A DNA stretch of 64,000 bases, taken from contig CAYQPW010000001.1 in NCBI GenBank assembly GCA_964419565.1, forward strand, positions 88,754 to 152,753, read 5' to 3'. The DNA is from an uncultured bacterium. Its GTDB lineage: Bacteria; Hydrothermota; Tepidihabitantia; SM23-42. Every line of letters begins with the position of its first letter. Within the stretch, counting starts at the first letter, position 1. Positions 22,641 to 57,014 of this stretch are shown here, piece by piece. The notes beneath the pieces are model-generated. The model did no database searches, was not told the DNA's origin, and saw nothing but the letters and a program-made list of their open reading frames with translations. A program made the translations under genes and the position numbers.

Positions 22641-22735
22641 TGTAACAAGAAAGCATATTAGGAAATCAAAGTATCAGTGGGAAGCGGATCAGGCTATCAG
22701 AAAACCAGGTAAATAGAAAGACCAAGCCCGACTCC

Positions 22736-22763: not shown

Positions 22764-22833
22764 CTATTGCGCTAAACACTCTGCGTACCATGCGCGACGC
22801 TGTTTGCTGTTAGTGCAGAAAGGAGTCTGAAGA

Positions 22834-23142: not shown

Positions 23143-23144
23143 TT

Positions 23145-24053: not shown

Positions 24054-24061
24054 CGAACAAT

Positions 24062-25147
24062 ATGAGATTTTTTTTACGCATTACGCTCTACCCGTTGCTC
24101 CCTACACTGTTGCTCTCAACAACCTGGACACCAGTCGAAAAGAAATGCCCGATCTGCGGTACAAAAAGCGAATACTATGAAATAACGAGTTATGGTTCAT
24201 ATGTTTATGATTACCCTTCAAGATTCGAATATATTTTCTGGCCATATACTGACGGCAAAGCTCTCTATTCCTGCAGAAAATGCTGGTTTACGTGTTTTAT
24301 GTGGGATTTCGAAGATATACCGGAAAGCAAGCATAAAGAGATTCGAAAGTTCGTCGACAGTCTTGATCTGTATGAAACGAATGGTGATTATTATGTTATC
24401 CCTATGTCTTACCGGCTTTTACTTGCCGAACGGATTTATGAAATACTCGGTAGGGATGAGGAATTCTGGTGTCACTTTTATCGGGTAAAAGGGCACCACA
24501 TGGCAAATGAAGAAAAGTTTGCTCATGCAGCAGAGGCGCGTACAAAAGCACTCAATATAGCTGAAGGCATGCTGCAAGATGAGAACAAAAAAGGTATCCG
24601 CAAAGAGCTGTACATTATAACTGGCGCCATGAGGTATCTTCTTAATGATCTGCAAGGTGCATTGCAAGATTTCAAACAGGCAAAAAACTTGACTTTTGGC
24701 AATGCTAACTGGAACAAAGAGAGTCTAAAGGATATAAATATTTACCTGTCGAAATTGGTCGATGACTATATAGAAAAGATCGGCGAGAAAGAGGGCAAGG
24801 CAGTGTTTTCTACGATGCCGACAATCGTTGAACTGTATGAAGAACCCGATGTGTTCATTGATTCAGTGGTCACTGTGACCGGGATACTGGTAAATAAGGG
24901 AACTGGATATTTTAGAGATTTTAACCCTGTGCTTATGGACGGGACCGGTAATATTATGCCCGTGACTATTTGGGCTCCGCTTGAATTGCCGCCGCCGATA
25001 AATCCTGATCTGACACCGCCAAAGGTGATGAGTTCTTATTTGAATAAGGAGGTCAGAGCGGGCGGTTATTTTCGCAAGGACGATACAGACCGTTTTGATG
25101 GTGACTATTATTTCGAGGTTTTCGACGCCCAGATAGTAGAAGAATAG
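24062..25147 (+). CDS. hypothetical protein with N-terminal CxxC...CxxC zinc-ribbon-like region and helical repeat region (361 aa)
   Basis: Hydrophobic N-terminus; ...KKCPICGTKSEYYE...YSCRKCWFTCF...; TPR-like helices in the middle. Confidence 0.5.
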   Translation: MRFFLRITLYPLLPTLLLSTTWTPVEKKCPICGTKSEYYEITSYGSYVYDYPSRFEYIFWPYTDGKALYSCRKCWFTCFMWDFEDIPESKHKEIRKFVDSLDLYETNGDYYVIPMSYRLLLAERIYEILGRDEEFWCHFYRVKGHHMANEEKFAHAAEARTKALNIAEGMLQDENKKGIRKELYIITGAMRYLLNDLQGALQDFKQAKNLTFGNANWNKESLKDINIYLSKLVDDYIEKIGEKEGKAVFSTMPTIVELYEEPDVFIDSVVTVTGILVNKGTGYFRDFNPVLMDGTGNIMPVTIWAPLELPPPINPDLTPPKVMSSYLNKEVRAGGYFRKDDTDRFDGDYYFEVFDAQIVEE

Positions 25148-36600: not shown

Positions 36601-36798
36601 ATGAAAGAAATAATAGCGATTTGTTCAAAATGCGGTTTTGTTTCGGTTACAAAAAAAGAGAAGTATTGTCCCAATTGCGGATTAGAATTGATCAAAAAAT
36701 GCCCGTACTGTAAAGAACCGATCGATCATCCTATGGCGCAGTATTGTCCGGTCTGCGGGGCGATGTATACACAACCAAAAACCGTAAACCGGAGATAA
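36601..36798 (+). CDS. double zinc-ribbon protein (65 aa)
   Basis: Four CxxC pairs: CSKCG...CPNCG...CPYCK...CPVCG. Confidence 0.55.
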   Translation: MKEIIAICSKCGFVSVTKKEKYCPNCGLELIKKCPYCKEPIDHPMAQYCPVCGAMYTQPKTVNRR

Positions 36799-36818
36799 TG
36801 TTGGTAAGAGGAGGAAAC

Positions 36819-39701: not shown

Positions 39702-42667
39702 TGAAATTATTCAAGATACTTCTTTTATTCTTATTCGTATTTTGTAATCTCTATGCACAGATGACACGTGTTTCAATGGACAATGGACGGTTGGTGCCTC
39801 AGCTGCTCAATTACCAGGGCTATCTTACTGACACGACTGGTATTCCAATTGATGATTCGCTCGATATGACGTTTAAAATATTTGATGCCGTGTCGAGCGG
39901 TAATGAATTGTGGTCAGAAACACAGACAAGTGTCCCGATCGAGCGCGGCGTGTTCAGTATCATACTCGGTGAGATAACACCGATCCCGGACAGTGTCTTT
40001 GACGATTTTTCAAACACATGGTTCGAGCTAACACTTGAAGGACCTCAGACCTTAGCGCCCCGCACGCGCATCACGTCAGTAGGGTATGCATATACTTCAA
40101 CGTATTCGGACACGGCTGAGTTCGCAAGAGTGGGCGCAGCAGATAATGACTGGATTGTCAACAGTAATCGTCTTTACCCGGCTGGTGACTATGGGTTAGC
40201 GATGCGCAGCAGTAATGTCATGTGGGGGTCAAATCTCAATACCCACGTGAATTTTGGCGTGTCCTGTACGACCGGTACCCTCTTACAGAACTATAATTAC
40301 TGCACTATCGGCGGTGGCTATCGTAATCGTGCAACACATTCTGCGGCGACCGTTGCCGGTGGATATCAGAATACCGCGGCTTATCATTATGCTGCGGTGG
40401 GCGGTGGGCGTTACAATTATAATGCCGGTTACTATTCAGTTATTCCAGGCGGTTATGCAGATACGATCACCGCGACCGGTGATTATTCGTATCTTTTCGG
40501 TATCAACAGCAACCTCACCCAGGATTCGACCTTCATGGTCGACATGCCGCACATTTGGTTTGGGAATGAAACAGGCGGGTATGAATTTCCAACATCAGAT
40601 GGTTTGGCTGATCAGACATTAATCACAGATGGCAGCGGACAGCTGAATTGGTCTGATGTGCCGTCATCAAGCAACTGGTCAGTTACCGATTCTGTGCTTT
40701 ATACAAATAATTACTGGGGTCTGACCCGCGGTGGTGCTGATAATGCTCTTTATGGTGATTTTGCTTATAGCCATGTCAATTTAGGAGTTGCATGCACGAC
40801 TGGATATTACCTAAGTAATAATTCATACTGCACTGTCAGCGGTGGATATCAAAACTCCGCCAGTGACTGGTACGCCACAATTGGCGGAGGTTTACAGAAC
40901 ATTGCGAGTGACTGGTACGCGACGGTCGGTGGAGGTTTACAGAATACGGCCAGTAATAACTACACGACCATAGGCGGCGGAGACAATAACCAGGCACTTG
41001 AACAGTATGCAACGATCGGCGGCGGATGGAATAACACTGCTGGTGGTTTATTTTCCACTATTGGCGGCGGTTATTGGAACACTGCAATTGGTGATTATGC
41101 AGCGATCTGCGGAGGACAGAGTAATCTGGCTGCTGGCGATTATGCAACTGTAGTTGGCGGTCAAAATAACCTTGCTGATAGCGCCTATACGACTATTGGC
41201 GGTGGTTATTATAATAAGGCGAGTGGTGATTATGCAGCAGTGAGCGGCGGTTATTATAGCCATGCTCTGGGCTATTGTACATATGTTGGTGGTGGTTATC
41301 GTAATAATGCAGTTGGTTATTGTGCGTTTGTAGGCGGCGGTTATGCGGATACAACGCGCGCAGATTATGGCGGTGTTGCATCGGGTTGGCATAATACTGC
41401 AGGAGATGCTTTGACTGATACCGCTGCGTTTGTGGGCGGCGGGAAAGATAATGCAGCTTTTGCACCGTATGCGAATGTCGGAGGTGGCTATGCAGATACT
41501 GTATGGGCTTTATATGGCGGTGTTGCATCGGGTTGGCATAATACTGCAGGAGATGCTTTGACTGATACCGCCGCGTTTGTGGGCGGCGGCAAAGATAATG
41601 CAGCGCTTGCACCGTATGCGAATGTTGCTGGTGGATATGCAAATACGGTTCAGGCACTGTATGGCGGTGTTGCATCGGGTTGGCATAATATAGCAGGAGA
41701 TGCTTCTAATGATACCGCTGCGTTTGTCGGCGGCGGGAAAGATAATGCCGCGTTTGCGCCGTATGCGAATGTCGGAGGCGGCTATGCAGATACTGTTTAT
41801 GCAGTGTACGGTGGTATTGGTTCTGGATACAGTAATCTGGCCGGCGATGAGACGGCAGATACTGCAGCAGCGGTTGCAGGTGGCTTGAACAATTCAGCTA
41901 CGGGTAAATATTCGTTTGTCGGCGGCGGTCGCGATAACATCGCCAGTGCAGATTACGCATCAGTAGCCAGTGGGTTTCAGAATACGGCCAGCGGCAATTA
42001 TGCGGTAGTAGCCGGCGGTTATGATAATACTGCTTCATCCTATGCGAGTTTTGCGGCGAATTCCGGCTCTCAAGCCTCCCACAATATGTCCGCAGCGTTT
42101 ACTATTAGCCATACCACAGCACCACTTCAAGTCCGCGCAATGGCGTTTTCCACAGGGACATTGGTTTTCTCGATGGATCATCCGTCCGATCCGATGAACA
42201 AGATACTCAATCAACATGCTGTGGGGTCTTCTGAGGCAATATTACTATATAATGGTACTGCGACTATTGAAGAAAATGGTCGTGTCGAGGTATTGCTTCC
42301 TGATTATTTTGAAAAGATCAATAGGAATGCCTGTATCCAGATAACCGGTGTCGGTTCTTCTGAGGTCGTGTTTGTTGCCGAAGATTTAAAAGGAAATTCA
42401 TTTATTATCGGCGGTCAGCCCGGCACAAAAGTCTACTGGACTGTGACCGGCGAGCGTACGGATATCCACGCCGAGATCGCGCGCACCCTGACCCCGGTCG
42501 TCCAGGAAAAGACCGGTGATTTGATCGGACACTCGCTCGACGATGATGCGCTCATCGGTATTTACGATCGCCTGCAGCAAGAAAAACCTGGTATGTTTTC
42601 ATTTAAAACTGAAGAAGGCCGCCGTGTCCACGAACAGAGTAAACAAACTGTAGAGAGTAGGGAGTAG
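39701..42667 (+). CDS. large secreted beta-roll repeat protein, paralog 2 (~988 aa), tandem to paralog 1
   Basis: ATG at 39701 overlaps the upstream stop (TAATG). Signal peptide MKLFKILLLFLFVFCNLYAQ. Same architecture; N- and C-domains ~75% identical to paralog 1. Confidence 0.8.
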   Translation: MKLFKILLLFLFVFCNLYAQMTRVSMDNGRLVPQLLNYQGYLTDTTGIPIDDSLDMTFKIFDAVSSGNELWSETQTSVPIERGVFSIILGEITPIPDSVFDDFSNTWFELTLEGPQTLAPRTRITSVGYAYTSTYSDTAEFARVGAADNDWIVNSNRLYPAGDYGLAMRSSNVMWGSNLNTHVNFGVSCTTGTLLQNYNYCTIGGGYRNRATHSAATVAGGYQNTAAYHYAAVGGGRYNYNAGYYSVIPGGYADTITATGDYSYLFGINSNLTQDSTFMVDMPHIWFGNETGGYEFPTSDGLADQTLITDGSGQLNWSDVPSSSNWSVTDSVLYTNNYWGLTRGGADNALYGDFAYSHVNLGVACTTGYYLSNNSYCTVSGGYQNSASDWYATIGGGLQNIASDWYATVGGGLQNTASNNYTTIGGGDNNQALEQYATIGGGWNNTAGGLFSTIGGGYWNTAIGDYAAICGGQSNLAAGDYATVVGGQNNLADSAYTTIGGGYYNKASGDYAAVSGGYYSHALGYCTYVGGGYRNNAVGYCAFVGGGYADTTRADYGGVASGWHNTAGDALTDTAAFVGGGKDNAAFAPYANVGGGYADTVWALYGGVASGWHNTAGDALTDTAAFVGGGKDNAALAPYANVAGGYANTVQALYGGVASGWHNIAGDASNDTAAFVGGGKDNAAFAPYANVGGGYADTVYAVYGGIGSGYSNLAGDETADTAAAVAGGLNNSATGKYSFVGGGRDNIASADYASVASGFQNTASGNYAVVAGGYDNTASSYASFAANSGSQASHNMSAAFTISHTTAPLQVRAMAFSTGTLVFSMDHPSDPMNKILNQHAVGSSEAILLYNGTATIEENGRVEVLLPDYFEKINRNACIQITGVGSSEVVFVAEDLKGNSFIIGGQPGTKVYWTVTGERTDIHAEIARTLTPVVQEKTGDLIGHSLDDDALIGIYDRLQQEKPGMFSFKTEEGRRVHEQSKQTVESRE

Positions 42668-45424: not shown

Positions 45425-45712
45425 TACACGCTAAGGCTAGGTAATAATACACATATATTAAAAAAAAGTCAAGGGAAAATATCACCATATCAGTAAACCT
45501 CCTCACATCATAGACTTAAGTCTAATTATATCGATTTATTATAATTTGTCAACACCCATGTTGATTATTGTTTATTTCTTGTAGTCGCCCGATTCATCGG
45601 GTAATGTCTGATAAATCAGACGACTACAGTCTATTTTTGGTTTTTTTAATCTTTTTATTTACCTGATTTTCTGATAGCCTGATCTGCATGATCAAAACGT
45701 TTTTGTGTAAAA

Positions 45713-45787: not shown

Positions 45788-47629
45788 CTATTTCAATAAC
45801 ATCTTGCATATACCTTCGACTGCTATCTTGCCGTCGGCGATCGCGGTTACTGCGTCGAGGTTACGATTAACAATGTCTCCACCGGCAAAGATACGGGCGA
45901 TCGATGTCTGTCCATTTTCGTCGACGCGGACCTTGCCTCGATCAAATTGTAATTCGTCCTTAAGGACTTTTGGCAAATACGAGAAATCAGCCATCTGTCC
46001 GACCGCCTCGATGATCATATCGCCGTTAATCGTTTTATTTTTTTCTTCATAGAATGTCGGGGCAAATCTTCCTTGTTCATCGAACACGGATTTTACCGCC
46101 TTGCATTCGAGTCCGATAATTTTTTTGTTTTTTAATAGAATTTTTTTCGGACCCCATGATACATTGAACAAAACTCCTTCTTCTTTGGCTTCGGTGTGTT
46201 CTTCCTCGGTCGCCGGGATGATATCCCACGATTCAAGACAGACAATATTGACCGAGGTTTTCTCACCAGGATATTGCATGTGTTGTAATCTAACGCAGGT
46301 CCGGGCAACGTCCATTGCCACATTACCACCGCCGATAATAATGATATTTTTACCGACTTTGATTTTCTTGCCGGATTTGACCTTGGTCAGAAAATCAATG
46401 GCCTGGGGAGCCATTTGCTCGTTCTCGAGTTTGATGTACCTTCCTTTGCACATGCCGGTGCTGATGTATACGGCATCGGCATTATCATAGATAGCCTCGA
46501 ATTTTATATCCTTGCCTACCTCGGTATTGAATTTAAATTTAACACCTAATGACTCTATATAATGTATGTCCCGGTCAATAATATCCAACGGCAGCCGGTA
46601 TTGCGGCGGTCCTATTCTCAGCATACCGCCGCCGCCGGGCAGGGAATCGTAGACAGTGACCCGATGACCTTTGAGTCTTAAGAAATGTGCGACTGTCAGA
46701 CCGGATGCTCCAGCACCGATCACCGCGATTTTTTTAGCTGTATCCGAAGCGACTTTTGGCTTTAATGCCTCTCTGAAATCGACAACCTCATCAGCGACAA
46801 ATCTCTTGAGCCATCTGATTGCCAGGGGCTTGCCGCGTATGCCAATAGAGCAGGCATCCTCGCAATGCTTCATGCATATCCTGCCGCATATTGAAGGGAT
46901 CGGATTGTCTTCAAATACTTTTCTGAGCGATTCTTCGTAGTTGCCCTGGGCGATCGCTTTGATATAGTCTGATATTTTGAGGTGAGCCGGGCAGGCTTCT
47001 TCACAGAGCTTACACTCTAAGCAGCGCGCTGCTTCAGCCCGTGCTTTTTCCTCAGAATATCCCAAAACCATTTCAACAAAAGATTTTTTCCGATCGGCTG
47101 GTTCGATCACGTCCATGAAGACCCGTTCGGGTTCGAACAAAGCGAATTTTAGATCGGAAGTAAATCCTTCATAATCCTTTTTTCGGTGGGTGAGACTGGC
47201 TTTGAAAATAGAATATTTCTCAGCGGGTAAGAAGTGCTCATTATCTGATTTCTGATCTTTGGCAAGTAAGGTAAAACTTTTCGTGTCGAAGTGGATATGA
47301 AAATAATCTCTTGATAACCTCAGGCAGCCGGGCGGACATACATCGACACATAAACCGCAAAAGCAGCACCGTCCATAATCGATTTGAGGGCGTTCATTTT
47401 TCTCGCCTGGTTTTGGCTTAATTCCAGGGATTTCGATCATGGTGATCGCCTCATTCGGGCATATGTCAAGGCAGTTGCCGCAGCCCGTACATTTTTCCCA
47501 ATCGTTGAGATGGAGGCCCCGGTATCTTTCAGCCGGTTCCTTGGGTTCGAATGGGTATCTCAGTGTTTTCGGTTTTTTAAAAAGATATCTGATCGCTTTA
47601 AAAGGACTAAAGATATTTGGTTTGCCCAT
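45788..47629 (-). CDS. fusion of NuoI/MbxN-like 2x[4Fe-4S] ferredoxin subunit with GltD/SudA-like NAD(P)H-dependent FAD/FeS oxidoreductase (613 aa)
   Basis: N-terminal ...LRYPFEP.EPAERYRGLHLNDWEKCTGCGNCLDICPNEAI...YGRCCFCGLCVDVCPPG is NuoI-type. From ~aa 190: ...CLECKLCEEACPAH... and ...ICGRICMKHCEDAC... (GltD FeS motifs), KIAVIGAGASGLTVAHFL (FAD GxGxxG), IIIIGGGNVAMDVART (NAD(P)H site). Last gene of the cluster, 10 nt after the nuoD-like gene. Confidence 0.8.
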   Translation of the reverse strand: MGKPNIFSPFKAIRYLFKKPKTLRYPFEPKEPAERYRGLHLNDWEKCTGCGNCLDICPNEAITMIEIPGIKPKPGEKNERPQIDYGRCCFCGLCVDVCPPGCLRLSRDYFHIHFDTKSFTLLAKDQKSDNEHFLPAEKYSIFKASLTHRKKDYEGFTSDLKFALFEPERVFMDVIEPADRKKSFVEMVLGYSEEKARAEAARCLECKLCEEACPAHLKISDYIKAIAQGNYEESLRKVFEDNPIPSICGRICMKHCEDACSIGIRGKPLAIRWLKRFVADEVVDFREALKPKVASDTAKKIAVIGAGASGLTVAHFLRLKGHRVTVYDSLPGGGGMLRIGPPQYRLPLDIIDRDIHYIESLGVKFKFNTEVGKDIKFEAIYDNADAVYISTGMCKGRYIKLENEQMAPQAIDFLTKVKSGKKIKVGKNIIIIGGGNVAMDVARTCVRLQHMQYPGEKTSVNIVCLESWDIIPATEEEHTEAKEEGVLFNVSWGPKKILLKNKKIIGLECKAVKSVFDEQGRFAPTFYEEKNKTINGDMIIEAVGQMADFSYLPKVLKDELQFDRGKVRVDENGQTSIARIFAGGDIVNRNLDAVTAIADGKIAVEGICKMLLK

Positions 47630-47639
47630 TCACTACCTC

Positions 47640-48737
47640 CTAGCGGTCTATCTCAGGAGCAACCACATACAGGCTTATCATAATGTTACCGACATCAGCG
47701 ATACTGGCATTCTTCAGTAGCTTTTCCAAAATTACGAGTCCGTGCGTGTATGACGGTGTTCTGAAGTGCACCCGGTAAGGTTTGTCTCCGCCGTCGCTCA
47801 CCAGGTAAAGCCCGAGTTCTCCCCGTGATGACTCGACTCTCACATATGCATCGCCCGGGGGAATGGTCCATTTGAACGGGTTGGGGATCCGGTTATATAC
47901 TTCACCTTTGGGTAGATTATCAAGCAATTTGAATATCATGTGAACACTTTCGATCATTTCATCCCTGATTACCCATACCCGGGAATAGGCATCGCCATCT
48001 TCTCTTATCGGCACCTCAAAATCAACTTTCTGATAGGCAGCATACGGCTCAATTTTTCTGATATCGGATTTTAATCCGGTAGCGCGTATTACCTGGCCGA
48101 CCCCACCCATTTTTATCGCTTCTGCTTGCGTGATTTTGCCGATATCTTTGGCGCGTTCGTAAAACAGACGGTTATTAAAGAATGTCGCGTCATAGTCAGG
48201 CACACATTTGCCAATAGAGTGGAGTGTAGATACCATCCTGTCCTCAAAGCCCCGGGGAAAATCACGACGTACGCCGCCGGGCCAGATGTAGATGTGATAA
48301 ACCCGGCCGCCGGTGAGCTCTTCGAACAGATCGAGGATAAGGTCGCGGTGATACATCGCCCACTGGGCGACCGTATCAAAGCCAAGCATATTGGCATATG
48401 CCCACAGACCAAAAAGGTGCGAGCCGACGCGGGCAAGTTCAAGGTAAATGCTTCTGATATGGTGCGCTCTTTCAGGGACTTCGATGCCAGCGAGTTTTTC
48501 CACAGCCATCGAATACACCATTTCCATATGATCGGGCTCCACGACATTTATTCGGCACACCAGAGGGAAATTCTGGATCCAGGTTCGATACTCCATGAGT
48601 TTTTCAAAACCCCGATGAAGATATCCAGGATTGGCGGTCGCTTGAATGATACGGTCACCTTCGACTTTGAGGGTAATACTGAAGTTTCCTACCATGCCAA
48701 GATGTTGAGGACCAAAAAAGAGTTCCAGTTCTCTCAT
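47640..48737 (-). CDS. NuoD / Mbx-L-like 49-kDa-family subunit lacking NiFe-ligand cysteines
   Basis: ...FGPQHLGMVG... and ...NPGYLHRGFEKL... are NuoD-like. No RxCGxCxxxH near the N-terminus. The C-terminus ...SLYVVAPEIDR has no DPCxxCxxH/R. Confidence 0.8.
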   Translation of the reverse strand: MRELELFFGPQHLGMVGNFSITLKVEGDRIIQATANPGYLHRGFEKLMEYRTWIQNFPLVCRINVVEPDHMEMVYSMAVEKLAGIEVPERAHHIRSIYLELARVGSHLFGLWAYANMLGFDTVAQWAMYHRDLILDLFEELTGGRVYHIYIWPGGVRRDFPRGFEDRMVSTLHSIGKCVPDYDATFFNNRLFYERAKDIGKITQAEAIKMGGVGQVIRATGLKSDIRKIEPYAAYQKVDFEVPIREDGDAYSRVWVIRDEMIESVHMIFKLLDNLPKGEVYNRIPNPFKWTIPPGDAYVRVESSRGELGLYLVSDGGDKPYRVHFRTPSYTHGLVILEKLLKNASIADVGNIMISLYVVAPEIDR

Positions 48738-49219
48738 TTGTCCTCCTTGACAAAGGGGATCTCATCGAAATACTCTTTCACATACTTTCTTGTATCGAAG
48801 TCCTTACGAAAAGGCGGTATTTCATAATCTCTTTCCAAAAAGAGCGGGATCTGTCTGGGGTGCCCTTTAAAATCAATGCCGAAGAGTTCGTGTATTTCCC
48901 TTTCATAGGGTTCGGCATTTTCGAAAATATCGATAACAGTCCTGAAATCTAACTTTTTGCGCGGGATATTAGTTTTTAGAATAATATGATCGTTTTCAGA
49001 ATAGGAACTAAGGATATACACCAATTCCAGTTTTTCCTTATCGATCCAGTCCACGCATGAGATCAGGGCAAGATGAATGTATCCTTGATCCTTTAATGAT
49101 TTCAGAACATCTCCTGTACTATCCATGGGCACTGAGATAACAAGCCGACCGTTTTTTTCAGTCGATATTTCAATCCCGCGAAAGATCGCCTTCAGTTTCC
49201 TTTTTATTGAATTATCCAT
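48734..49219 (-). CDS. NuoC / Mbx-K-like 30-kDa-family subunit
   Basis: 161 aa, ...ERDYEIPPFRKD... Overlaps its neighbours by 4 and 8 nt. Confidence 0.7.
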   Translation of the reverse strand: MDNSIKRKLKAIFRGIEISTEKNGRLVISVPMDSTGDVLKSLKDQGYIHLALISCVDWIDKEKLELVYILSSYSENDHIILKTNIPRKKLDFRTVIDIFENAEPYEREIHELFGIDFKGHPRQIPLFLERDYEIPPFRKDFDTRKYVKEYFDEIPFVKEDK

Positions 49220-49778
49220 TTCGCTTATTTATGTTATATAGGGGGGGCCAGGCGAGTTTACCCAATGCCCTTTCCTGGTTTTTCCGGTAGTACGTGTATT
49301 TTTCTCGGTACTTTTTGTAGCCATTAGCCATTTCCTTATCGATCAGGGTCCAGAGGTGAGTAACCGCGATGAAGATTGCCTCTGGTCTTGGCATGCACCC
49401 AGCGATCCATCCATCAACAGGAATATATTTATCAAGATGTTTTATGGTATTGTAGGAATCCCAGTACATGCCGCCATTTATCGGGCAGGACCCAAAGCCG
49501 ACCGTGTATTTTGGCTCAGGCATCTGCTCGTACGTTCTGATGATCGCCTTGAGTGTTTTCAAAGAAACATACCCGGTGATCAAGAACAAGTTTGCCTGTC
49601 TCGGCGAGCCCACGGGAATTACTCCGAATCGTTCAGCATCCCATCTGGTCGTTATCACCGGCGGCACTTCAATGATCCCGCAGCCCGTGCAAAAATAAAC
49701 CGCCCACAAGGAATATTTGTTACCCATTTTTTGTGGTTGTTTGAACCACTTTGTAAGCACATTTCTATCCATAGCCAC
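49212..49778 (-). CDS. NuoB / Mbx-J-like 20-kDa (PSST) subunit carrying the N2-type [4Fe-4S] site
   Basis: ...FCTGCGIIE..., ...GSCPINGG..., ...GCMPRPEA... cysteine motifs. 188 aa. Confidence 0.75.
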   Translation of the reverse strand: MAMDRNVLTKWFKQPQKMGNKYSLWAVYFCTGCGIIEVPPVITTRWDAERFGVIPVGSPRQANLFLITGYVSLKTLKAIIRTYEQMPEPKYTVGFGSCPINGGMYWDSYNTIKHLDKYIPVDGWIAGCMPRPEAIFIAVTHLWTLIDKEMANGYKKYREKYTYYRKNQERALGKLAWPPLYNINKRNG

Positions 49779-50655
49779 CCCATATGTATGTGATGATCAA
49801 TCCAGCCAGGGCAAGAATTGTTGGCCAGGTCCAATTAAAACGGATCGCCTGTTCAATTCTAAACCTCGGAAAGACCGCGTTAATGAAAACTCCAAGGACA
49901 AACACGATCACCATTTTGAGCAGGAATGTAAAAGGCTCGCCTGCACCGCCTAAGAATAAATTTACAAACAGCGCGATCACGATAAAGCGACGGAAGGCGT
50001 GTTCAATATAATAAAGTGCTAAGAACTTACCGCTGTATTCCACTTTCAATCCAGAAGATATTTCCTGGGGCGCTTCGACCATATCGAATGGCCTGATGCC
50101 GAGCATTGCCGGTAAGATCAGAAAATAAGCGATGCCGGCTAAGGGAAGGGAAACGATACCCCAACTTGATGCTCTTTGAAAATGAACCAGGTTGACGAGT
50201 GATATCGTCCGGTAATAGAACATTAGCGTCAGCACGATCAATAGAAAGGGCACCTCATAGCTCAAGGCGAGAAGCATTTTGCGGGAAATACCGATACTGA
50301 TGTTAGGATTGGAACCACTGCCCCCGGACAAGGCGATGCCGATCGGAGCAAGGAGCATGAGGTAAAGGACCACGAGTAACCCGCCTGAAATATTGAGCGG
50401 GCATATATTGCCGATCGGAATAAACAATAATGTCACGACACTACCGGCCAATGATAACAACAATCCCAGTTCAAATATCACCCCGTGGGAAACGCTTTTT
50501 TGCAAGAACAGCTTTATTATATCGATTACCGGTTGATAGAGCGGCGGACCATAGCGCCAGTGTATCCGGGCCATTATTATTCTGAACAACCCCATAAAGA
50601 ATATTCCGATAACGAATCCGATGACCGGTGAGAGTATAAAGCCTGCCACACCCAT
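49765..50655 (-). CDS. NuoH / Mbx-M-like membrane subunit
   Basis: Start moved to the ATG at 50655 (4 nt after the upstream stop; the track ORF began at 50763 inside the upstream gene). ...RIHWRYGPPLYQPVIDIIKLF... 8 TM helices. Confidence 0.7.
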   Translation of the reverse strand: MGVAGFILSPVIGFVIGIFFMGLFRIIMARIHWRYGPPLYQPVIDIIKLFLQKSVSHGVIFELGLLLSLAGSVVTLLFIPIGNICPLNISGGLLVVLYLMLLAPIGIALSGGSGSNPNISIGISRKMLLALSYEVPFLLIVLTLMFYYRTISLVNLVHFQRASSWGIVSLPLAGIAYFLILPAMLGIRPFDMVEAPQEISSGLKVEYSGKFLALYYIEHAFRRFIVIALFVNLFLGGAGEPFTFLLKMVIVFVLGVFINAVFPRFRIEQAIRFNWTWPTILALAGLIITYIWGGYG

Positions 50656-50659
50656 GATA

Positions 50660-52528
50660 TTACCAAGGCCTCCAGATAAGCTGCACACAGATGAGCACCG
50701 CAAGAAATAACATAATATAGATGACGTAATTACCCAAATCTCCGGTATACATACGCCTGACAAATTCAGCGAGCTTTTCGCTAATTTTGCCGATCCACAC
50801 GTAGAACTGGTCTATTCTATCCTTTAACCACGGTTTGACCATTGTGTAAAAAGGATTATAAAAATCCACGGTATAATGGTATTTATCTGCAGGTACATAT
50901 GCACCTGCAGCATAGGAGTTATCCTGGGATACCAGCACCGATTTACCGCCGGTGCGGAATATTATGTAGACGATAAAAACTAATACTATGATAGCAGCAA
51001 ATATATTGATCGTATTCAGAGTGCCTGTTTCCGAGGCAATGCCCCAAAGATTGACACCCAGTGATTCGAATCCCAAAGAGATGCCGATCGAGTTGATGAT
51101 ATTCAATCCGAGACCGGGAAGGATGCCAAATATAATAGTGACTGCACACAATATTACCATTGGCAGCCGCATGCTAAAAGGAGCACTCTTTATATTTTTA
51201 TGCTTTTCCGAGAGCTGCCCCAGAAACATGTTGTGTAATAGTTTGTAGATCGCCAGTAAACTCCCCCACGTTCCGATCAAAGCCGCAAAAGCAAGGAAAG
51301 GAGAGCCGTTAAGAATCAGTGTTTTATAAATCAACCACTTGGAGACAAACCCATTCGTAAGGGGGATGCCGATCAAACCGCATGCCCCTACCAGGGTGGC
51401 GATAAAGGTAACCGGCATTTTATTTGCCAGGCCGCCTAAGGAATTTAGATCCCTGACCCCGCCGGTCCGGAATTCGACCGCACCGACCGCAAGAAAGAGG
51501 AGTGCTTTGAATATCGCATGGTTGAAAAAATGGAATATTCCGCCGGCTAGTCCCAGACTTGTACCAAAGGCGATGCCCAGGATAATGTAGCCGCATTGTC
51601 CAATACTCGACCAGGCAAGCAATTTCTTGGCATCGTCTTGAAAAACCGCGATGAAGTTGGGGATGACAATGGTGATGCCCGCGAGCAAACATAGAATATA
51701 ATGAAAACTCAGTCGCCCCTGCCCCAGATAGAGAAATATCCGCGACCCGAGCATTATATAGAATATCATGAGAAAACCAAAGGTTCCCATCTTCGCGAGC
51801 ATGCCAGAAAGCAAAGCAGTAAAGGGACTGGGTGATTCAGTATAAGCCGAAGGTACCCAGACGTGAAGCGGCATGAGGCCATTTTTTATTCCGAAAGCAA
51901 TGCAGAACATGATAAGGATGAAGACTATATAACCACGAGGAGCGCTGGCAATAAAACCTGCGATCTGCGAAATATCGAATGTTCCGAAATTCCCATATAT
52001 TGAAAGGATCCCCACTAACATGCATAACGAGCCGGCAAGAGATATTATAATGTATTTCAAACCTGCCGCCAGGGCCGGACCTTTATTATAGCTTACCAGC
52101 ACAAAAATACTCCAGGACATGATCTCCCAGAAAACGTAGAATGAGATCAGGTCACCGGACATGACAATACCGAGCATGCTGGTGCTTACCAATAGCATCA
52201 TCATATAGTAAAGACCGAGTCTTGTTTTATCTTTCATGTAGCTCAATGAGAAGATTATTGACATGGTGCTCAGTACGGTGATGGTAATGGCAAAGAGCCA
52301 GGAAAGATTATTGATCCTCAAGATCAGGGGATGGTCAAAGAACCTGGCGTACACTAATTCTTTTCCATAACCGTGTAGTCCTGCTACCATGAGTACGAGC
52401 ACTGAAGAGATAAAAATGGCAAAACCATTGCGCACATTTTGCGAGACCTTACCTAAAAGATAGGTCAGAAATGCGCCTCCCAGGGCGACGATGAGCAGGT
52501 TATTGAATATGATATCAGGGTAAGACAC
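50660..52528 (-). CDS. MrpA/MrpD-like (NuoL/M/N family) antiporter-type membrane subunit (Mbx-H'-like), 622 aa
   Basis: Polytopic protein of the NuoL/M/N proton-pumping family. Overlaps the upstream gene by 14 nt. Confidence 0.75.
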   Translation of the reverse strand: MSYPDIIFNNLLIVALGGAFLTYLLGKVSQNVRNGFAIFISSVLVLMVAGLHGYGKELVYARFFDHPLILRINNLSWLFAITITVLSTMSIIFSLSYMKDKTRLGLYYMMMLLVSTSMLGIVMSGDLISFYVFWEIMSWSIFVLVSYNKGPALAAGLKYIIISLAGSLCMLVGILSIYGNFGTFDISQIAGFIASAPRGYIVFILIMFCIAFGIKNGLMPLHVWVPSAYTESPSPFTALLSGMLAKMGTFGFLMIFYIMLGSRIFLYLGQGRLSFHYILCLLAGITIVIPNFIAVFQDDAKKLLAWSSIGQCGYIILGIAFGTSLGLAGGIFHFFNHAIFKALLFLAVGAVEFRTGGVRDLNSLGGLANKMPVTFIATLVGACGLIGIPLTNGFVSKWLIYKTLILNGSPFLAFAALIGTWGSLLAIYKLLHNMFLGQLSEKHKNIKSAPFSMRLPMVILCAVTIIFGILPGLGLNIINSIGISLGFESLGVNLWGIASETGTLNTINIFAAIIVLVFIVYIIFRTGGKSVLVSQDNSYAAGAYVPADKYHYTVDFYNPFYTMVKPWLKDRIDQFYVWIGKISEKLAEFVRRMYTGDLGNYVIYIMLFLAVLICVQLIWRPW

Positions 52529-53990
52529 TTCTGATATATTCTCCTCTGTCCAGGAGCATACCTGCAGCTGAGTTGAGTATTTTGCTGAGTACTTCTGGAT
52601 ATATGCCGATACCGACTACTAGTACCATTAAAATGCATATCGGGATAAGAACTGCGAGTGATGTATTCTTTCGTGTTTGGTCAGGATCTTTGTTGCTTTC
52701 TTTGAAGTAAATGATTTGGATCACTTTAAGGAAATAAGCACATTCAATGACTGTCGCTAGCAATACGAATCCAAGAAGAATAGTCAGCAAAAGATCATGT
52801 TGGACCAGTGTTGCTTCGACAATGAGAAATTTTGACGCAAATCCCACAAAAGGGGGAAAACCGATGAGCGAAAAAACGCCGATGACAAAAGCAAGGGAAA
52901 TCACCGGCAGTTTTTTCCCCATACCTGCCAGGGAATCGATCTCCATCGAACCCGAGCGATAGATCATATACCCGACCGTAAGAAAGAGCAGCGCTTTAGC
53001 CAGTGCGTGGGAGGTGATCTGAAACAGTGCTCCTTTTATTCCGAGAGCACTGGCAAGGCCAAATGCAAAGATAATAAGACCGATCTGGCCGGTCGATGAA
53101 TAAGCGAGCATTCTTTTTATGTTGTTCTGGCGGAAAGCGGCCAATTCTCCCACGAGCAGGGTGATCAAGCCTATAAACAAAAGGAAATGAAGAAGGCTGC
53201 TTGCTCCGAATAGCGTAAAGATGATCCTCATGATCGAGTAGACCCCCATCTTTATCGCGATGCTGGATAGGATTGCCGAGATCGAGGAAGGTGCCGAAGA
53301 GTGCGCATCAGGTAGCCAGGCATTGAGCGGGATTATTGCTGCTTCGACGCCGAATCCAGTGATCAAAAGAGCCAGCGGTAAAAATGCGGATAACGGTGTG
53401 ATCGAGTGAATATGTTTCGCAATGTGCGCCATATTAAGCGTTCCAAAATAGCCATAGAGCAATGCAATACCCATGAGGATCAATCCCGAGCCAACCGTGC
53501 CCTGGATCAAATATTTTATGCCTGCTTCAATACCTGGTTTGTCCTGGTTATATGCAACGAGCGCGTACGATGAGATGCAGAGGATCTCAAAGAACACGAA
53601 TAGATTAAATATGTCACCGGTAAGAACGATCCCGGTTGCACCAACCAGGAGCAAGAGATACAACATGTGATAACTTTGGGTGGCGCCTTTTTTGATATAA
53701 TCGACAGCGTAAATGGAGATCATCAATCCGACCAGGGCGATGAGCACGGCCAAGAACACGGCCAGAGGATCGACCATCAGGTTTATGCCGAAAGGCGCGG
53801 GAAACCCACCCAGGCTGATAATGATCGGTGCTTGGAGTACCCGGGGGATAAGGGTGATAGCGGCAGCAAGATTAAAAATCATCCCCAGAATAGGGATATA
53901 TTTTGTGATTTTTTTCGAAATAAAGCCAAACAAAGGTATGGTGAAAGTTAAGCCCAAGGGTATGACTATTAAGAGTACGGGGTTTACCAT
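52515..53990 (-). CDS. MrpD-like (NuoM/N family) antiporter-type membrane subunit (Mbx-H-like), 491 aa
   Basis: Same family as the preceding gene. Confidence 0.75.
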   Translation of the reverse strand: MVNPVLLIVIPLGLTFTIPLFGFISKKITKYIPILGMIFNLAAAITLIPRVLQAPIIISLGGFPAPFGINLMVDPLAVFLAVLIALVGLMISIYAVDYIKKGATQSYHMLYLLLLVGATGIVLTGDIFNLFVFFEILCISSYALVAYNQDKPGIEAGIKYLIQGTVGSGLILMGIALLYGYFGTLNMAHIAKHIHSITPLSAFLPLALLITGFGVEAAIIPLNAWLPDAHSSAPSSISAILSSIAIKMGVYSIMRIIFTLFGASSLLHFLLFIGLITLLVGELAAFRQNNIKRMLAYSSTGQIGLIIFAFGLASALGIKGALFQITSHALAKALLFLTVGYMIYRSGSMEIDSLAGMGKKLPVISLAFVIGVFSLIGFPPFVGFASKFLIVEATLVQHDLLLTILLGFVLLATVIECAYFLKVIQIIYFKESNKDPDQTRKNTSLAVLIPICILMVLVVGIGIYPEVLSKILNSAAGMLLDRGEYIRSVLP

Positions 53991-54325
53991 TTTAATTCTT
54001 TGATCTTACGCACATCGAGTGTACCATAATGACGGTACAATCTTATGACCAGGGAAAGAGCAAGGGCAAGGGTCGCGACACCGATTACGATCGCCGTGAG
54101 AACCAGAGCCTGGGGGATCGGGTCAACCATGAGTGACGGATTGAGTTTGTCCTTTGAAAAAATCGGAGCGGTGCCCCCTTTTATGTAACCGGTGCATACA
54201 AGAAGTATAAAAATCCCGGTTTCGAATATATCGAGTCCGATAATGACTTTGATCAAATTTCTCTTGGTGAGAACGATATACAACCCGATAATTATTAAAC
54301 CGATCGCTCCGATATAATAGATCAT
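53984..54325 (-). CDS. MrpC / NuoK-like small membrane subunit (Mbx-G-like)
   Basis: 113 aa, ...LTKRNLIKVIIGLDIFETGIFILLVCTGY...PQALVLTAIVIG... Confidence 0.7.
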   Translation of the reverse strand: MIYYIGAIGLIIIGLYIVLTKRNLIKVIIGLDIFETGIFILLVCTGYIKGGTAPIFSKDKLNPSLMVDPIPQALVLTAIVIGVATLALALSLVIRLYRHYGTLDVRKIKELKW

Positions 54326-55014
54326 GGTTCCTCTATTAACCTGTCCAGAACTCCGGTCAGTTCAGCACCGACTTTAAAGCCGATCGCAACATAGATGATC
54401 GGAATGATCCCGGCGCTGAACAACTCATTGGGCAGTCCTTTGGGCAAGTAATTAGCAAGAAAGTAACCGCTGTATAGCAGTCCCAAGAGGCCGATCACCA
54501 CAAAAACAAGCCCGCCAATAGATTCAGTTATTTTCGCAGCACTTTTATTGATGCCGCGCCATTTCCAGCATCCCAGCATGGTCAGCAGAAAACCCGAGGC
54601 AATTATCGCTCCGCCCTGGAATCCTCCGCCTGGAGTTAAGTGACCGTGGATGAAAATATAGGCGCCGAAAAGCATGGTCAACGGGAATAAGAATCTGCAC
54701 CCCGTGTAAAGGATCAAACTGCTTTTCCTGCCTTCTTTTTTCGGTTTTTTTTCTTCCTGATGAAGTACTGCGGACAGACCGATCGCCGCGAGAAATAGAA
54801 CTGTCACTTCACCGAGCGTGTCGAAACCGCGATAATTAACGACCACTGAAGTGACGATGTTGGTGGCTCCGGTATCTTTGATCCCGTTGTCGATATAGTA
54901 TTCTCTTACCTTGCTTAATGATCGACCGAATGGTATTTCTGTTAAACAAAAAATTACTCCGCTTAAAAGTATTGCCAGCAGGATAAGGCTAACTATTTTT
55001 CTCATCGTCCTCAT
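54322..55014 (-). CDS. MrpB-like membrane subunit (Mbx-F-like) with C-terminal extension
   Basis: ...GATNIVTSVVVNYRGFDTLGEVTVLFLAAIG... 230 aa. Confidence 0.65.
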   Translation of the reverse strand: MRTMRKIVSLILLAILLSGVIFCLTEIPFGRSLSKVREYYIDNGIKDTGATNIVTSVVVNYRGFDTLGEVTVLFLAAIGLSAVLHQEEKKPKKEGRKSSLILYTGCRFLFPLTMLFGAYIFIHGHLTPGGGFQGGAIIASGFLLTMLGCWKWRGINKSAAKITESIGGLVFVVIGLLGLLYSGYFLANYLPKGLPNELFSAGIIPIIYVAIGFKVGAELTGVLDRLIEEP

Positions 55015-55240
55015 GCCTTTTTGTCTTTTTTAAAGCTATGACAAATATCGCCACCGTAAGTGCCGCGCCAATCGAGGCTTCAGCCATGGCAACATCTGGA
55101 GCGTTGAGCAGGAAGAACAATATCGCCGCGATAAAACTGACGAAACCAGCGGCGATCACCGCATTTAACAGGTTTTTAAAAGTCCCGGCGCTGACTGCAG
55201 CGACCAGCATCACCAGAACAAGAATTATTTCAAGAATCAT
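54989..55240 (-). CDS. small membrane subunit, DUF4040 / MrpA-C-terminal-domain-like (Mbx-D-like)
   Basis: 83 aa, ...FFLLNAPDVAMAEASIGAALTVAIFVIAL... Confidence 0.55.
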   Translation of the reverse strand: MILEIILVLVMLVAAVSAGTFKNLLNAVIAAGFVSFIAAILFFLLNAPDVAMAEASIGAALTVAIFVIALKKTKRHEDDEKNS

Positions 55241-55559
55241 TTTCTTCCTTGCAAAGATCTTTTGATTGGTTCACTTTTGTTTTGTCGCAAAGAGAAACAC
55301 CGGACAGGCAGGAAGCCCGACCGAGCGCGTGGCTGGATATTGGATTCGTTAATAAAACAAATACCGCAATGACCAGAGTCGTCCAGAACCAGGAAGGTTC
55401 GAGTATGCCGACGCCGATAATCGTACAGAATGCTCCCAGGGTGGTGCATTTCGTGCCCGCCTGTAATCGGTTATACACGTCGGGCATCCGGTATACGCCG
55501 AGCGAACCAAGGAATAAAAATAACACGCCAAAGCCGGTCACGAACCAGCCAATGATCAT
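55230..55559 (-). CDS. MrpG-like subunit (Mbx-C-like)
   Basis: ...GSLGVYRMPDVYNRLQAGTKCTTLG... matches the MnhG/PhaG family. Confidence 0.7.
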   Translation of the reverse strand: MIIGWFVTGFGVLFLFLGSLGVYRMPDVYNRLQAGTKCTTLGAFCTIIGVGILEPSWFWTTLVIAVFVLLTNPISSHALGRASCLSGVSLCDKTKVNQSKDLCKEENDS

Positions 55560-55810
55560 AGAGTTCCTCCTTCAAGATACCGGGCAATGGCTACTGAACC
55601 GACAAAAGTCAAGACCGCATATACCAATGATACATCGAGATAGACCTGCCTCTGGAGTATGAAGCCGATCAAAACTAAGAGGGCGGTCGTGACGGTCACT
55701 GCCGTATCAAGGGCAACGGCACGATCAGGAGCAGTCGGTCCTTTTAGCATTCTTAAAAGACAGAGTACTACACCACATCCGATGATCACCAGATAGATAG
55801 TTCCTATCAT
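55556..55810 (-). CDS. MrpF-like subunit (Mbx-B-like)
   Basis: ...RMLKGPTAPDRAVALDT...LDVSLVYAVLTFVGSVAIARYLE... Confidence 0.7.
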   Translation of the reverse strand: MIGTIYLVIIGCGVVLCLLRMLKGPTAPDRAVALDTAVTVTTALLVLIGFILQRQVYLDVSLVYAVLTFVGSVAIARYLEGGTL

Positions 55811-56277
55811 TGAAATATAACCTTTAAAATTTTCTCGAATTTTTCGCCAATAATTTTTGTCGTTGTATCGATATCGACTGCTTTGACATCTATCCAGTGG
55901 ATGAGCATTTTATCTTCCTGAATATCAAGTGTAAATGTTCCCGGTGTAAGGGTGATGGAGTTGGCAAGGACTGTCTTTGCGATATCTGATTTAAGTTCCG
56001 TGTGTATGATAACGACCCCGGGGTTTATCGGGAGCGCGGGATGTATTACGCGCAGCGCTACGTCAAAATTTGCTTTTATTATTTCGAAAAAAAGAACTGC
56101 GATATACCAAAGAAAATATATAACGCGTTTTGGATTTATTGCAGGAAAACCGAGTCCGAGGTAGAATTCATTGGCAAAGAGAGCAATAAGAAATGCCACG
56201 ATTGCGCCGGTCCATAGTTTCTGATAATGGAATGATGTTGTAAGCAAAAGCCATAAAAAGAGTAAGAAAAAGAACAT
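55807..56277 (-). CDS. MrpE-like subunit (Mbx-A-like); first gene of the cluster
   Basis: 156 aa, N-terminal TM helices. 4-nt overlap with mrpF-like. Confidence 0.6.
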   Translation of the reverse strand: MFFFLLFLWLLLTTSFHYQKLWTGAIVAFLIALFANEFYLGLGFPAINPKRVIYFLWYIAVLFFEIIKANFDVALRVIHPALPINPGVVIIHTELKSDIAKTVLANSITLTPGTFTLDIQEDKMLIHWIDVKAVDIDTTTKIIGEKFEKILKVIFQ

Positions 56278-56396
56278 CCAGATAAAGCTCTTGAGCCTGT
56301 CCTTAAGCCTGACTTTTTGGTCCGTACGATCTCCTTTTAGTTTATATTATTCTGGTTGGGGTGATCATAATACCCCTCTTTTACTACGATAATAAC

Positions 56397-56425
56397 CATT
56401 ATATGCATAATATTATATTTGTCAA
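56397..56425 (-). promoter_or_regulatory. candidate sigma-70 promoter (TTGACA-N16-TATAAT on minus strand) for the mrp/nuo-like operon
   Basis: Reverse complement reads cacTTGACAaatataatattatgcaTATAATgg, ~120 nt upstream of the mrpE-like ATG. Coordinates +/-2 nt. Confidence 0.4.
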
Positions 56426-56508: not shown

Positions 56509-56537
56509 TTGACATGGATTTAAAATTCAATAATAAT
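56509..56537 (+). promoter_or_regulatory. candidate sigma-70 promoter TTGACA-N17-AATAAT for the CGGC-domain gene
   Basis: TTGACA 56509-56514. The ATG at 56514 used by the ORF track lies inside this -35 box, which supports the downstream start at 56571. Confidence 0.35.
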
Positions 56538-56570
56538 AGTCAACATCGAAGTAAAACAGGGGGTGTTTTA

Positions 56571-57014
56571 ATGGAAAAGATAAATATCGGAATAATAATA
56601 TGTCATCGTTACCATACCTGCGCTGGTGGCAAGTGCTTGCGCGCGGCCCGTAACCGTGAGGGCGCATTCAGTGTGTACCGTAATAAAGACATAGAGATCG
56701 TCGGGTACACCTCCTGCAACGGCTGCCCAGGCGGCAATATCGAGTATGCGCCTGAAGAGATGAAGAAAAACGGCGCAACGGTTATACATCTTGCAACCGG
56801 CCTGGTAGTCGGCTACCCGCCCTGTCCATACATCGCGCATTTTAGGAATTTTATCAAGGAAAAGTTTGATATGGATGTGGTTATCGGTACACATCCGATC
56901 CCGCAGAAATACTATATAACGCATACAGCCTTAAAAACATGGAATACACCAGAATGGAAAGAGTTTATCAAGCCGACCTTGGTCGATCAAGCTCTTCGTC
57001 AAGCTTACGATTGA
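56571..57014 (+). CDS. CGGC-domain protein (predicted metal-binding, ~147 aa)
   Basis: MEKINIGIIICHRYHTCAGGKCL...YTSCNGCPGG... cysteine pattern. Divergent from the mbx-like operon. Confidence 0.6.
   Translation: MEKINIGIIICHRYHTCAGGKCLRAARNREGAFSVYRNKDIEIVGYTSCNGCPGGNIEYAPEEMKKNGATVIHLATGLVVGYPPCPYIAHFRNFIKEKFDMDVVIGTHPIPQKYYITHTALKTWNTPEWKEFIKPTLVDQALRQAYD

Follow-up and report, generated by a model that had tools for sequence, protein, structure and literature searches.

A bacterial Mbx/MBS-type gene cluster with a NuoI-like subunit fused to an NfnB/GltD-like flavoprotein: a proposed ion-translocating NADH:acceptor oxidoreductase

Which enzyme is encoded by thirteen genes that combine Mrp antiporter-like and complex I-like subunits with a flavoprotein, and what does this enzyme reduce? 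The question is raised by the minus strand of a 64,000-nucleotide stretch of contig CAYQPW010000001.1 (assembly GCA_964419565.1) from an uncultured bacterium of the Hydrothermota, referred to here as the window, which carries the cluster at positions 45788-56277. Comparison of the subunits indicates that the cluster is an Mbx/MBS-family complex, neither complex I nor hydrogenase, related to the membrane-bound sulfane reductase (MBS) of Pyrococcus furiosus. It is best described as a bacterial branch of this family in which subunit N is extended by an NfnB/GltD-type flavoprotein (denoted N'). We propose, with moderate confidence, that the complex is an ion-translocating NADH:acceptor oxidoreductase that would reduce a substrate other than quinone, probably sulfane sulfur, at the site formed by subunits J and L.

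The thirteen open reading frames stand consecutively where a preliminary description of the sequence had placed them, and their Pfam E-values, spanning 1e-19 to 1e-73, exclude chance. Their order is A-B-C-D-E-G-H-H'-M-J-K-L-N (E was formerly named F). This is the Mbx/Mbs order that the preliminary description had recognized, and it is borne out by Pfam and by the same order in related loci. The starts of M, J, and E are taken from shorter gene calls on an identical public contig, which give proteins of 296 amino acids (aa) for M (49765-50655), 186 aa for J (49212-49772), and 227 aa for E (54322-55005, with the longest open reading frame reaching 55014). With these starts, adjacent genes either share 4-17 nt or lie 10 nt or less apart.

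Genes A through G encode an Mrp-like membrane module. The MrpE-like membrane subunit is encoded by mbxA/mbsA (55807-56277, 156 aa; Pfam MNHE, 1.5e-39), followed by the MrpF-like mbxB (55556-55810, 84 aa; MrpF_PhaF, 7.7e-20) and the MrpG-like mbxC (55230-55559, 109 aa; PhaG_MnhG_YufB, 2.5e-25). The next gene, mbxD (54989-55240, 83 aa; MbhD, 2.7e-19), encodes an MbhD-like protein that resembles transmembrane helices 1-3 of NuoJ, mbxE joins MbhE (7e-11) to an MrpB-like part (MnhB, 3e-25), and mbxG (53984-54325, 113 aa; Oxidored_q2, 5.9e-28) is MrpC/NuoK-like. Two antiporter-like pump subunits with Proton_antipo_M domains follow. The first is mbxH (52515-53990, 491 aa), with 6U8Y_H as its best PDB match, and the second is mbxH' (50660-52528, 622 aa, GTG start), which matches 6U8Y chain X and carries a C-terminal lateral-helix extension. 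The complete Mrp-like set of the preliminary description thus stands, with MNHE, MrpF, MrpG, MnhB, Oxidored_q2, and two Proton_antipo_M domains all detected by Pfam.

The remaining genes encode the peripheral arm and its anchor. The NuoH-like (NADHdh) subunit encoded by mbxM anchors the arm in the membrane and matches MbsM, and mbxJ encodes the NuoB-like (Oxidored_q6) subunit of the proximal [4Fe-4S] cluster, with the motif FCTGCGIIEVPP and a match to MbsJ. The NuoC-like mbxK (48734-49219, 161 aa; Complex1_30kDa, 1.5e-30) is followed by mbxL (47640-48737, 365 aa), whose Complex1_49kDa product resembles NuoD and the [NiFe] large subunit and matches MbsL. Last is mbxN' (45788-47629, 613 aa), which joins a NuoI-type part with two [4Fe-4S] motifs to Fer4_20 and Pyr_redox_2 domains, as recognized by Pfam and by the NCBIfam model NF010590.

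To which family does this assembly belong? In a search of all PDB chains, P. furiosus MBS (PDB 6U8Y) ranks first for L, J, M, H, H', and N. L scores 352 bits against MbsL, compared with 247 for the complex I 49-kDa subunit and 139 for MbhL, and J scores 226 bits against MbsJ, compared with 133 for NDH-K, 105 for MbhJ, and ~100 for complex I. M reaches 202 bits with MbsM and ~70 with ND1/MbhM. Of the pumps, H reaches 316 bits with 6U8Y_H versus 271 with MbhH, and H' reaches 278 bits with MbsH' (6U8Y chain X) over residues 16-615, lateral-helix extension included, versus 245 with MbhH. The N-terminal part of N' scores 108 bits against MbsN and 57 against NdhI.

These comparisons bear directly on whether the cluster is an ordinary complex I that is served by NuoEFG encoded elsewhere in the genome. 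The NCBIfam NuoB and NuoD models do pass their cut-offs on the window proteins, and the WOR-3 surveys that were searched list complex I (nuo) in nearly all genomes, with no mention of Mbx or MBS. The model matches are explained by shared ancestry only. MBS is the best match for all six subunits tested, and the window cluster may itself contribute to the nuo calls in surveys of WOR-3 and other genomes. Among the thirteen open reading frames, Pfam finds no NuoE, NuoF, NuoG, or NuoA and no separate NuoJ, the MbhD-like protein being only a weak NuoJ-like match, which agrees with the preliminary description. MrpE, MrpF, MrpG, MbhD, and MbhE homologs are present instead, and N' brings its own flavoprotein. 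Ordinary complex I is effectively refuted by the subunit comparisons together with the defining residues of J (CxxC) and L (V16 and V65), and the probability left to it is negligible. The window cluster does share with complex I/NDH-1 the Q-module of NuoB, C, D, and I, the NuoH anchor, NuoK, the antiporter-like pumps, and the concept of an L-shaped pump with NADH input. It differs in lacking NuoEFG, NuoA, and the full NuoJ/L/M/N set, in having a CxxC rather than a tandem CC in the NuoB-like subunit, in having no quinone ligands, in its extra MrpE/F/G module, and in an NADH module of other evolutionary origin (NfnB/GltD-like).

The large subunit likewise separates the complex from the hydrogenases. 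L retains none of the four NiFe-ligand cysteines, as had been described, with C85 of P. furiosus MbsL aligned with N64 and C385 with V359. A [NiFe]-hydrogenase of group 4 (Mbh/Ech) is rejected, as L contains neither the L1 (RxCGxC) nor the L2 (DPCxxC) motif. The combination of group-4-hydrogenase-like subunits without Ni/Fe ligands and Mrp antiporter-like subunits is the one that characterizes Ehr complexes, and Mbx has been classed as a type of Ehr (PMC6349859).

One feature that sets the cluster apart from archaeal MBS is N'. Residues 1-110 are NuoI-like with two [4Fe-4S] motifs, residues 110-180 form a conserved linker, and residues 180-613 are NfnB/GltD-like, with a further two [4Fe-4S] motifs, a FAD fold, and an NAD(P)H fold bearing a CLE motif. 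This last region aligns end to end with 9N5U_A, StnC (8OH5_C), Thermotoga maritima NfnB (4YLF_B), P. furiosus NfnI-L (5JCA_L), and GltD (6S6S_G). The fusion of a NuoI-like subunit to a nucleotide-binding flavoprotein, also part of the preliminary description, is therefore supported by Pfam and by NF010590, which spans the junction (its match covers 8-606 of the 611 model positions and scores 697 bits, under the cut-off of 946). With such a fusion, the complex needs no NuoEFG. Sixteen cysteines in four motifs (C47/50/53/57, C88/91/94/98, C203/206/209/213, and C248/252/256/260) are invariant in 81 of 81 N' sequences, as are both dinucleotide-binding glycine motifs and the LE motif, and four [4Fe-4S] clusters and one FAD are predicted from the cysteine and glycine motifs. 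Compared with NfnB, GltD, and StnC, which it matches over their full length, the flavoprotein part is peculiar in its attachment to a NuoI domain through the conserved 70-residue linker, in its nucleotide motif, and in having no NfnA or GltB partner. An AlphaFold2 model of N' built from a 12-sequence alignment is unusable, with a mean predicted local distance difference test score (pLDDT) of 55.7 and residues 1-191 below 50.

The nucleotide motif suggests the electron donor. All five aligned relatives, members of NADPH-dependent enzyme families, carry YRR where beta-2 of the nucleotide fold ends. The window has CLE at this position, and its clade an invariant (S/C)LE, with an insertion upstream. 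In Rossmann folds, an acidic residue at this point generally indicates NAD and arginines indicate NADP. By this rule, NADH is more likely than NADPH to be the nucleotide of N'. With the more distant fused clusters included, the family has two motif types: (S/C)LE with the insertion occurs in the window clade, Thermosipho, and some WOR-3, and YRR in Hydrothermae/WOR-3 and Spirochaetaceae representatives. This division suggests NADH- and NADPH-dependent versions of the fused family.

The next question is where the electrons would go. In L, the quinone-headgroup ligands are gone, H38 of Nqo4 being replaced by V16 and Y87 by V65, both near-invariant. The signature C61-R-I/V-N64-V is invariant in 69 relatives, and position 359 is V, I, T, or A. 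Cys61 (69/69) sits three residues ahead of N64, which marks the position of the lost NiFe/MbsL cysteine; L of Thermosipho and of P. furiosus has its cysteine at the canonical position, unlike the window clade. J aligns with MbsJ without gaps over 157 residues (18-174 with 13-169; FCTGCGIIEVPP versus FCTGCGGIEMPP) and keeps the short MBS-type CxxC loop, so that a three-Cys cluster is predicted at the sequence level. In P. furiosus, the MbsJ loop is three residues shorter than that of MBH, so the first cysteine cannot act as a ligand, and the resulting three-Cys proximal cluster is the proposed MBS catalyst (PMC7684303). Activity is unaffected by mutation of the non-ligand MbsJ cysteine or of C85 and C385 of MbsL (PMC7684303). 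Among relatives of the window, the three ligand cysteines of J are invariant (60/60), and the non-ligand cysteine is substituted in 2 of 60. J and L stand out as the most conserved subunits by a wide margin: their median identity to the window across relatives is 82%, and that of the other subunits lies at 54-70%. Three points together argue that the chemistry takes place at the J/L site, namely this constraint on J and L, the lack of ligands for quinone and NiFe, and the MBS-type loop of J. The pump residues are kept as well: E135, E216, K247, and K387 in H, with the exception that H330 of P. furiosus is Q324, and E135, K215, K246, H333, and K397 in H'.

Could the J/L site nevertheless serve a quinone? 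The complex would then be an analogue of complex I that is built with a different N-module and acts as a minimal NADH:menaquinone oxidoreductase. Several of the phyla that carry the cluster (Planctomycetota, Bacteroidota, and Desulfobacterota) make menaquinone, and the step from NADH to menaquinone would power two pumps. The chamber of MBS is also hydrophobic and equals that of complex I in width (PMC7684303). Such a role is improbable, and we see only a slim chance for it, given that both headgroup ligands are replaced by near-invariant valines, that the CxxC of J is of the hydrogenase/MBS type and not the tandem CC of complex I, and that the subunits score far lower against complex I/NDH-1 than against MBS.

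For a non-quinone acceptor, the following path is proposed. NADH would bind the C-terminal flavoprotein of N' and reduce its FAD. From there, electrons would run along four [4Fe-4S] clusters, first the pair in the Fer4_20 domain and then the pair in the NuoI domain, to reach the proximal [4Fe-4S] cluster of J. Like its counterpart in P. furiosus MBS, this cluster, atop the L/J/M chamber, would reduce a substrate other than quinone, with sulfane sulfur (polysulfide) the most likely one, and the reaction would drive H+ or Na+ translocation via the Mrp-like module A-G together with H and H'. Four elements of this path are inferred: the specificity for NADH, the direction of electron flow, the acceptor, and the ion pumping.

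Oxidation of NAD(P)H is a plausible direction, with support from the genes around related operons. Rex is a sensor of NADH/NAD+, and its regulons typically hold NADH-consuming enzymes. A rex-type repressor gene (PF06971 and PF02629) adjoins the operon in 15 related loci, in 12 of them directly upstream and on the same strand. Predicted Rex boxes with 0-2 mismatches occur in 15 of the 31 upstream regions of relatives, against a background of 0.078 per kb, and sit before rex or, in Bacteroidales loci, directly before gene A; the box of the rex-mbx locus L077 is perfect, and the Thermosipho locus has a Rex box with two mismatches. The built-in flavoprotein, its LE motif, and this linkage to Rex argue for oxidation of NADH.

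The opposite direction has precedent. In the original Mbx hypothesis, the complex is an ion-translocating ferredoxin:NAD(P)+ oxidoreductase analogous to Rnf, and here ferredoxin would donate at the NuoI domain with electrons leaving through the flavoprotein to NAD(P)+. This role has been given to gltD-fused mbx-like operons (PMC4758237) and to bacterial Mbx in PMC3608648, PMC4596419, and a Mesotoga preprint, and electron flow from ferredoxin to NAD+ yields more free energy than flow from NADH to polysulfide. Such a path, however, bypasses the J cluster and the L/J/M chamber, where the structurally studied relatives couple chemistry to pumping (PMC7684303), and leaves J and L, the most conserved subunits, with no function. 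It is also a poor match for Rex control, for a producer of NADH that is induced at high NADH is counter-intuitive, and the ferredoxin:NADP+ role of P. furiosus Mbx itself has been superseded by sulfane reduction (PMC7684303, PMC8165549). We therefore judge it unlikely, while granting it real weight.

Sulfane sulfur as the acceptor of the proposed NADH oxidoreductase is argued from four sides. Besides the homology with MBS, T. maritima mbxA (THEMA_RS08165) has a measured induction by S0/thiosulfate, with a 4.4-fold rise in response to elemental sulfur (S0) (PMC9431562), and the sole WOR-3 isolate, which has neither psr nor dsr, respires S0 (PMC12285271). The fourth is the neighborhood of the operon in relatives. 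Some related loci are flanked by a CoADR/NSR-like gene, and in some, two downstream genes are putatively sulfhydrogenase beta/gamma-like, with Pfam giving only the generic Fer4_22 and FAD/NAD-binding matches. In four loci (L077, at 14556-17528, and L009, L012, and L044), the operon has immediately downstream of it a cluster for a true group-4 [NiFe]-hydrogenase, whose large subunit in L077 (16341-17528) carries the motifs RICGICS and DPCYCC. This pairing of an mbx-like operon with a group-4 hydrogenase resembles that of MBH and MBS in Thermococcales.

Several points weigh against NADH-dependent sulfane reduction. The textbook potentials of the NADH and polysulfide couples are -320 mV and about -260/-270 mV, from which electron transfer between them yields only ~10-12 kJ/mol per two electrons under standard conditions. 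The window complex keeps both MBS pump subunits despite this small yield; the values quoted in PMC8165549 put MBH at the same energy level as NADH to polysulfide and the two-pump MBS at 42 kJ/mol. The gap would be resolved by co-input of ferredoxin, by an acceptor of higher potential, or by a low ratio of ions to electrons. The site itself differs in detail from that of MBS, since L lacks the two vestigial cysteines of P. furiosus and Thermosipho and has the invariant C61 instead. The preference of N' for NADH is predicted from a general Rossmann-fold rule, and published Thermotogae models assume that ferredoxin donates or that NAD(P)+ accepts the electrons (including PMC9431562, PMC4758237, and the Mesotoga preprint). 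The window has neither a rex homologue nor a Rex box, its two Rex-box-like matches having three mismatches, lying away from the operon, and being at chance level; Rex control cannot be claimed for this locus. An adjacent rex gene or Rex operator often accompanies Thermotogae-type Mbx operons but does not strictly define them. Near the operon in the window there is no sulfur-metabolism gene, and no functional partner was found in the window.

One way to meet the energetic shortfall is a dual-input or confurcating enzyme, in which one chain to J/L receives electrons both from ferredoxin, at the NuoI domain, and from NADH, at the flavoprotein, with enough force for two pumps and with NAD+ regenerated. 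The first 110 residues of N' still match the ferredoxin-accepting MbsN (108 bits), and the closest flavoprotein modules come from the bifurcating enzymes NfnB, NfnI-L, and StnC. Yet the operon contains neither a second branch nor an NfnA-like partner, and we consider dual input quite unlikely. The cluster ligands were also considered as a means of separating bifurcating from non-bifurcating enzymes, and they do not discriminate: the cysteine pattern and its adjacent Glu are common to NfnB, NfnI, N', and the non-bifurcating GltD.

How widespread is the complex that we propose to be an NADH:acceptor oxidoreductase? The exact N' protein is found on several metagenome contigs, and relatives with 80-87% identity are labelled WOR-3. 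In one scan of species-representative genomes, at least 440, from more than 15 phyla, encode a full-length relative of N'. The 80 best of these (60-88% identity) come from WOR-3, Aerophobetes, Planctomycetota, Zixibacteria, Cloacimonadota, Bacteroidales, Spirochaetota, Desulfobacterota, Sumerlaeota, Fermentibacteria/Aegiribacteria, Marinimicrobia, Atribacterota, Elusimicrobia, and others. All thirteen genes occur in identical order in every related locus whose contig extends far enough. In a library clustered at 50% identity, the whole window clade collapses to one representative, and beyond it stand about 12 more full-length fused clusters at 39-48% identity, including Thermosipho melanesiensis ABR31076.1. 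The window clade, Thermosipho, and P. furiosus are about equidistant (L 48-49%, J 56-62%). One contig binned as 'Thermoplasmata archaeon' (DAOVMN010000247.1, 4177 bp) carries J-K-L-N' with 81-85% identity to the bacterial clade in J and L and 67% in N', and it is probably a mis-binned bacterial contig.

The locus of T. melanesiensis that carries ABR31076.1 serves as the Thermotogae comparator. It has the same thirteen genes in identical order, the same fusion of NuoI to NfnB/GltD (616 versus 613 aa), and the (S/C)LE motif with its insertion, and an adjacent rex gene with a Rex box makes it resemble many relatives of the window. Identity per subunit is nevertheless only 34-54%. Thermosipho L retains both vestigial NiFe cysteines, whereas the window clade has lost both and has the invariant C61. 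The N' linker is shorter in Thermosipho, a rubrerythrin-like gene follows N', and a CoADR/NSR-like gene lies 4.7 kb downstream; the window has neither rex nor a rubrerythrin-like gene. P. furiosus MBS shares with the window the gene order, the subunit set, the CxxC loop of J, the pump residues, and the absence of quinone ligands, at 48% identity in L and 62% in J. It differs in that MbsN is a 208-aa ferredoxin-accepting subunit without flavoprotein and in that MbsL keeps C85 and C385, and only for the archaeal enzyme has activity been measured. A defining trait of Thermococcales MBS is the reduction of polysulfide or dimethyltrisulfide (DMTS) with ferredoxin as electron source, accompanied by the build-up of a Na+ gradient. 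The D subunit of the window ends in a charged C-terminal tail and is without the Trp-rich extension of P. furiosus MbsD, which mediates dimerization of MBS (PMC7684303). The bacterial complex may not form a dimer like that of P. furiosus MBS.

How much of this was known? Clusters of thirteen mbx genes have been reported in bacteria, namely Thermoanaerobacter (PMC3608648), Caldanaerobacter (PMC4596419), T. maritima (PMC9431562), and strain 3DAC (PMC10356935); those of Thermoanaerobacter and strain 3DAC are unfused. That mbx-like operons of Thermotoga and proteobacteria have a gltD-related flavoprotein in place of NuoI has been on record since 2015 (PMC4758237). The preliminary description had called the complex a type not yet characterized. 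As a type it is known, from PMC4758237, from NF010590, and from Thermosipho; as an enzyme the description holds, for no biochemical characterization of the fused form was found in the searched literature. The fused Mbx architecture is thus already known from genome analyses, and the window adds one member. Literature searches on Mbx together with WOR-3, Zixibacteria, Planctomycetes, or similar groups, or with Rex, found nothing relevant, and the locus tags TM1205-TM1217 yielded only a gene-order table. What appears to be absent from the searched literature is the breadth and tightness of the mesophilic 'sediment' clade, the loss of the vestigial cysteines with the invariant C61, the predicted NADH specificity, and the recurrent rex-mbx arrangement.

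The limits of the operon are marked by its promoters. A sigma-70-type promoter (TTGACA-16 nt-TATAAT) at 56398-56425 on the minus strand, ~120 nt upstream of gene A, matches the consensus at 12 of 12 positions. A second sigma-70 promoter at 45525-45552 on the same strand, also 12/12, serves the downstream PAS-GGDEF gene. These two promoters, before gene A and before the next gene, delimit the thirteen genes as one unit, and their co-transcription is inferred. Two perfect consensus promoters thus lie less than 11 kb apart, and such promoters are uncommon. Between the first of them and gene A, in the 5' untranslated region, the imperfect inverted repeat GGGGTGATCATAATACCCC at 56358-56376 could be an operator or a leader hairpin. 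Past the stop codon of N' by ~160 nt, a long minus-strand stem-loop (45580-45628; stem of ~19 bp, no U-tract) is a candidate terminator or RNA-stabilizing hairpin, and the region has a z-score of -3.98 against shuffles. An Rfam scan of the whole window gave no match.

The genes that flank the operon in the window encode PAS-GGDEF, DUF6982, and CGGC-domain proteins, an aminotransferase, and a methyltransferase, and these are not kept next to the operon in relatives. The CGGC-domain gene (56514-57014) is divergent from the operon, with a near-consensus promoter at 56509-56537, and is not kept beside the operon in other phyla. Other genes of the window are unrelated to the operon and encode malic enzyme, a TRAP transporter, RND efflux, a TonB receptor, regulators, and surface proteins. 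Two adjacent open reading frames of ~970-990 aa (36798-42667) and three consecutive ones of 300-360 aa (21598-25147) have no or almost no Pfam match. GC content and GC skew are raised at 38-42 kb. A long open reading frame without a Pfam match starts or ends beyond the window edge (61829-64000) and lies in a stretch of 55% GC, compared with ~45% elsewhere.

What, then, does the cluster mean for its family? The gain from the window itself is modest, as it supplies one more member, and the cultured Thermotogae offer better experimental handles. The window version is not rare, however, with a single 50%-identity cluster of N' reaching at least 440 species-level genomes, and bacterial MBX is among the few relatives of complex I without a measured substrate pair. 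A broader proposal, which we offer tentatively as possible rather than probable, is that of a 'sulfur-reducing complex I' that works without NuoEFG: an oxidoreductase under Rex control that pumps ions, passes electrons from NADH to sulfane sulfur (or another non-quinone acceptor), and is spread across more than 15 phyla of anoxic-sediment bacteria with catalytic subunits of more than 80% identity. If true, it would be a major unrecognized route for NAD+ regeneration, energy conservation, and sulfur reduction. NADH oxidation coupled to sulfane reduction and ion pumping would, if real, explain S0 respiration in lineages without psr and dsr, a phenotype of the cultured WOR-3 strain sy37, and metabolic reconstructions of anaerobes would need their 'complex I' calls corrected. 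In evolutionary terms, it would represent a second, independent gain of an NADH-dehydrogenase module by an Mrp-type pump.

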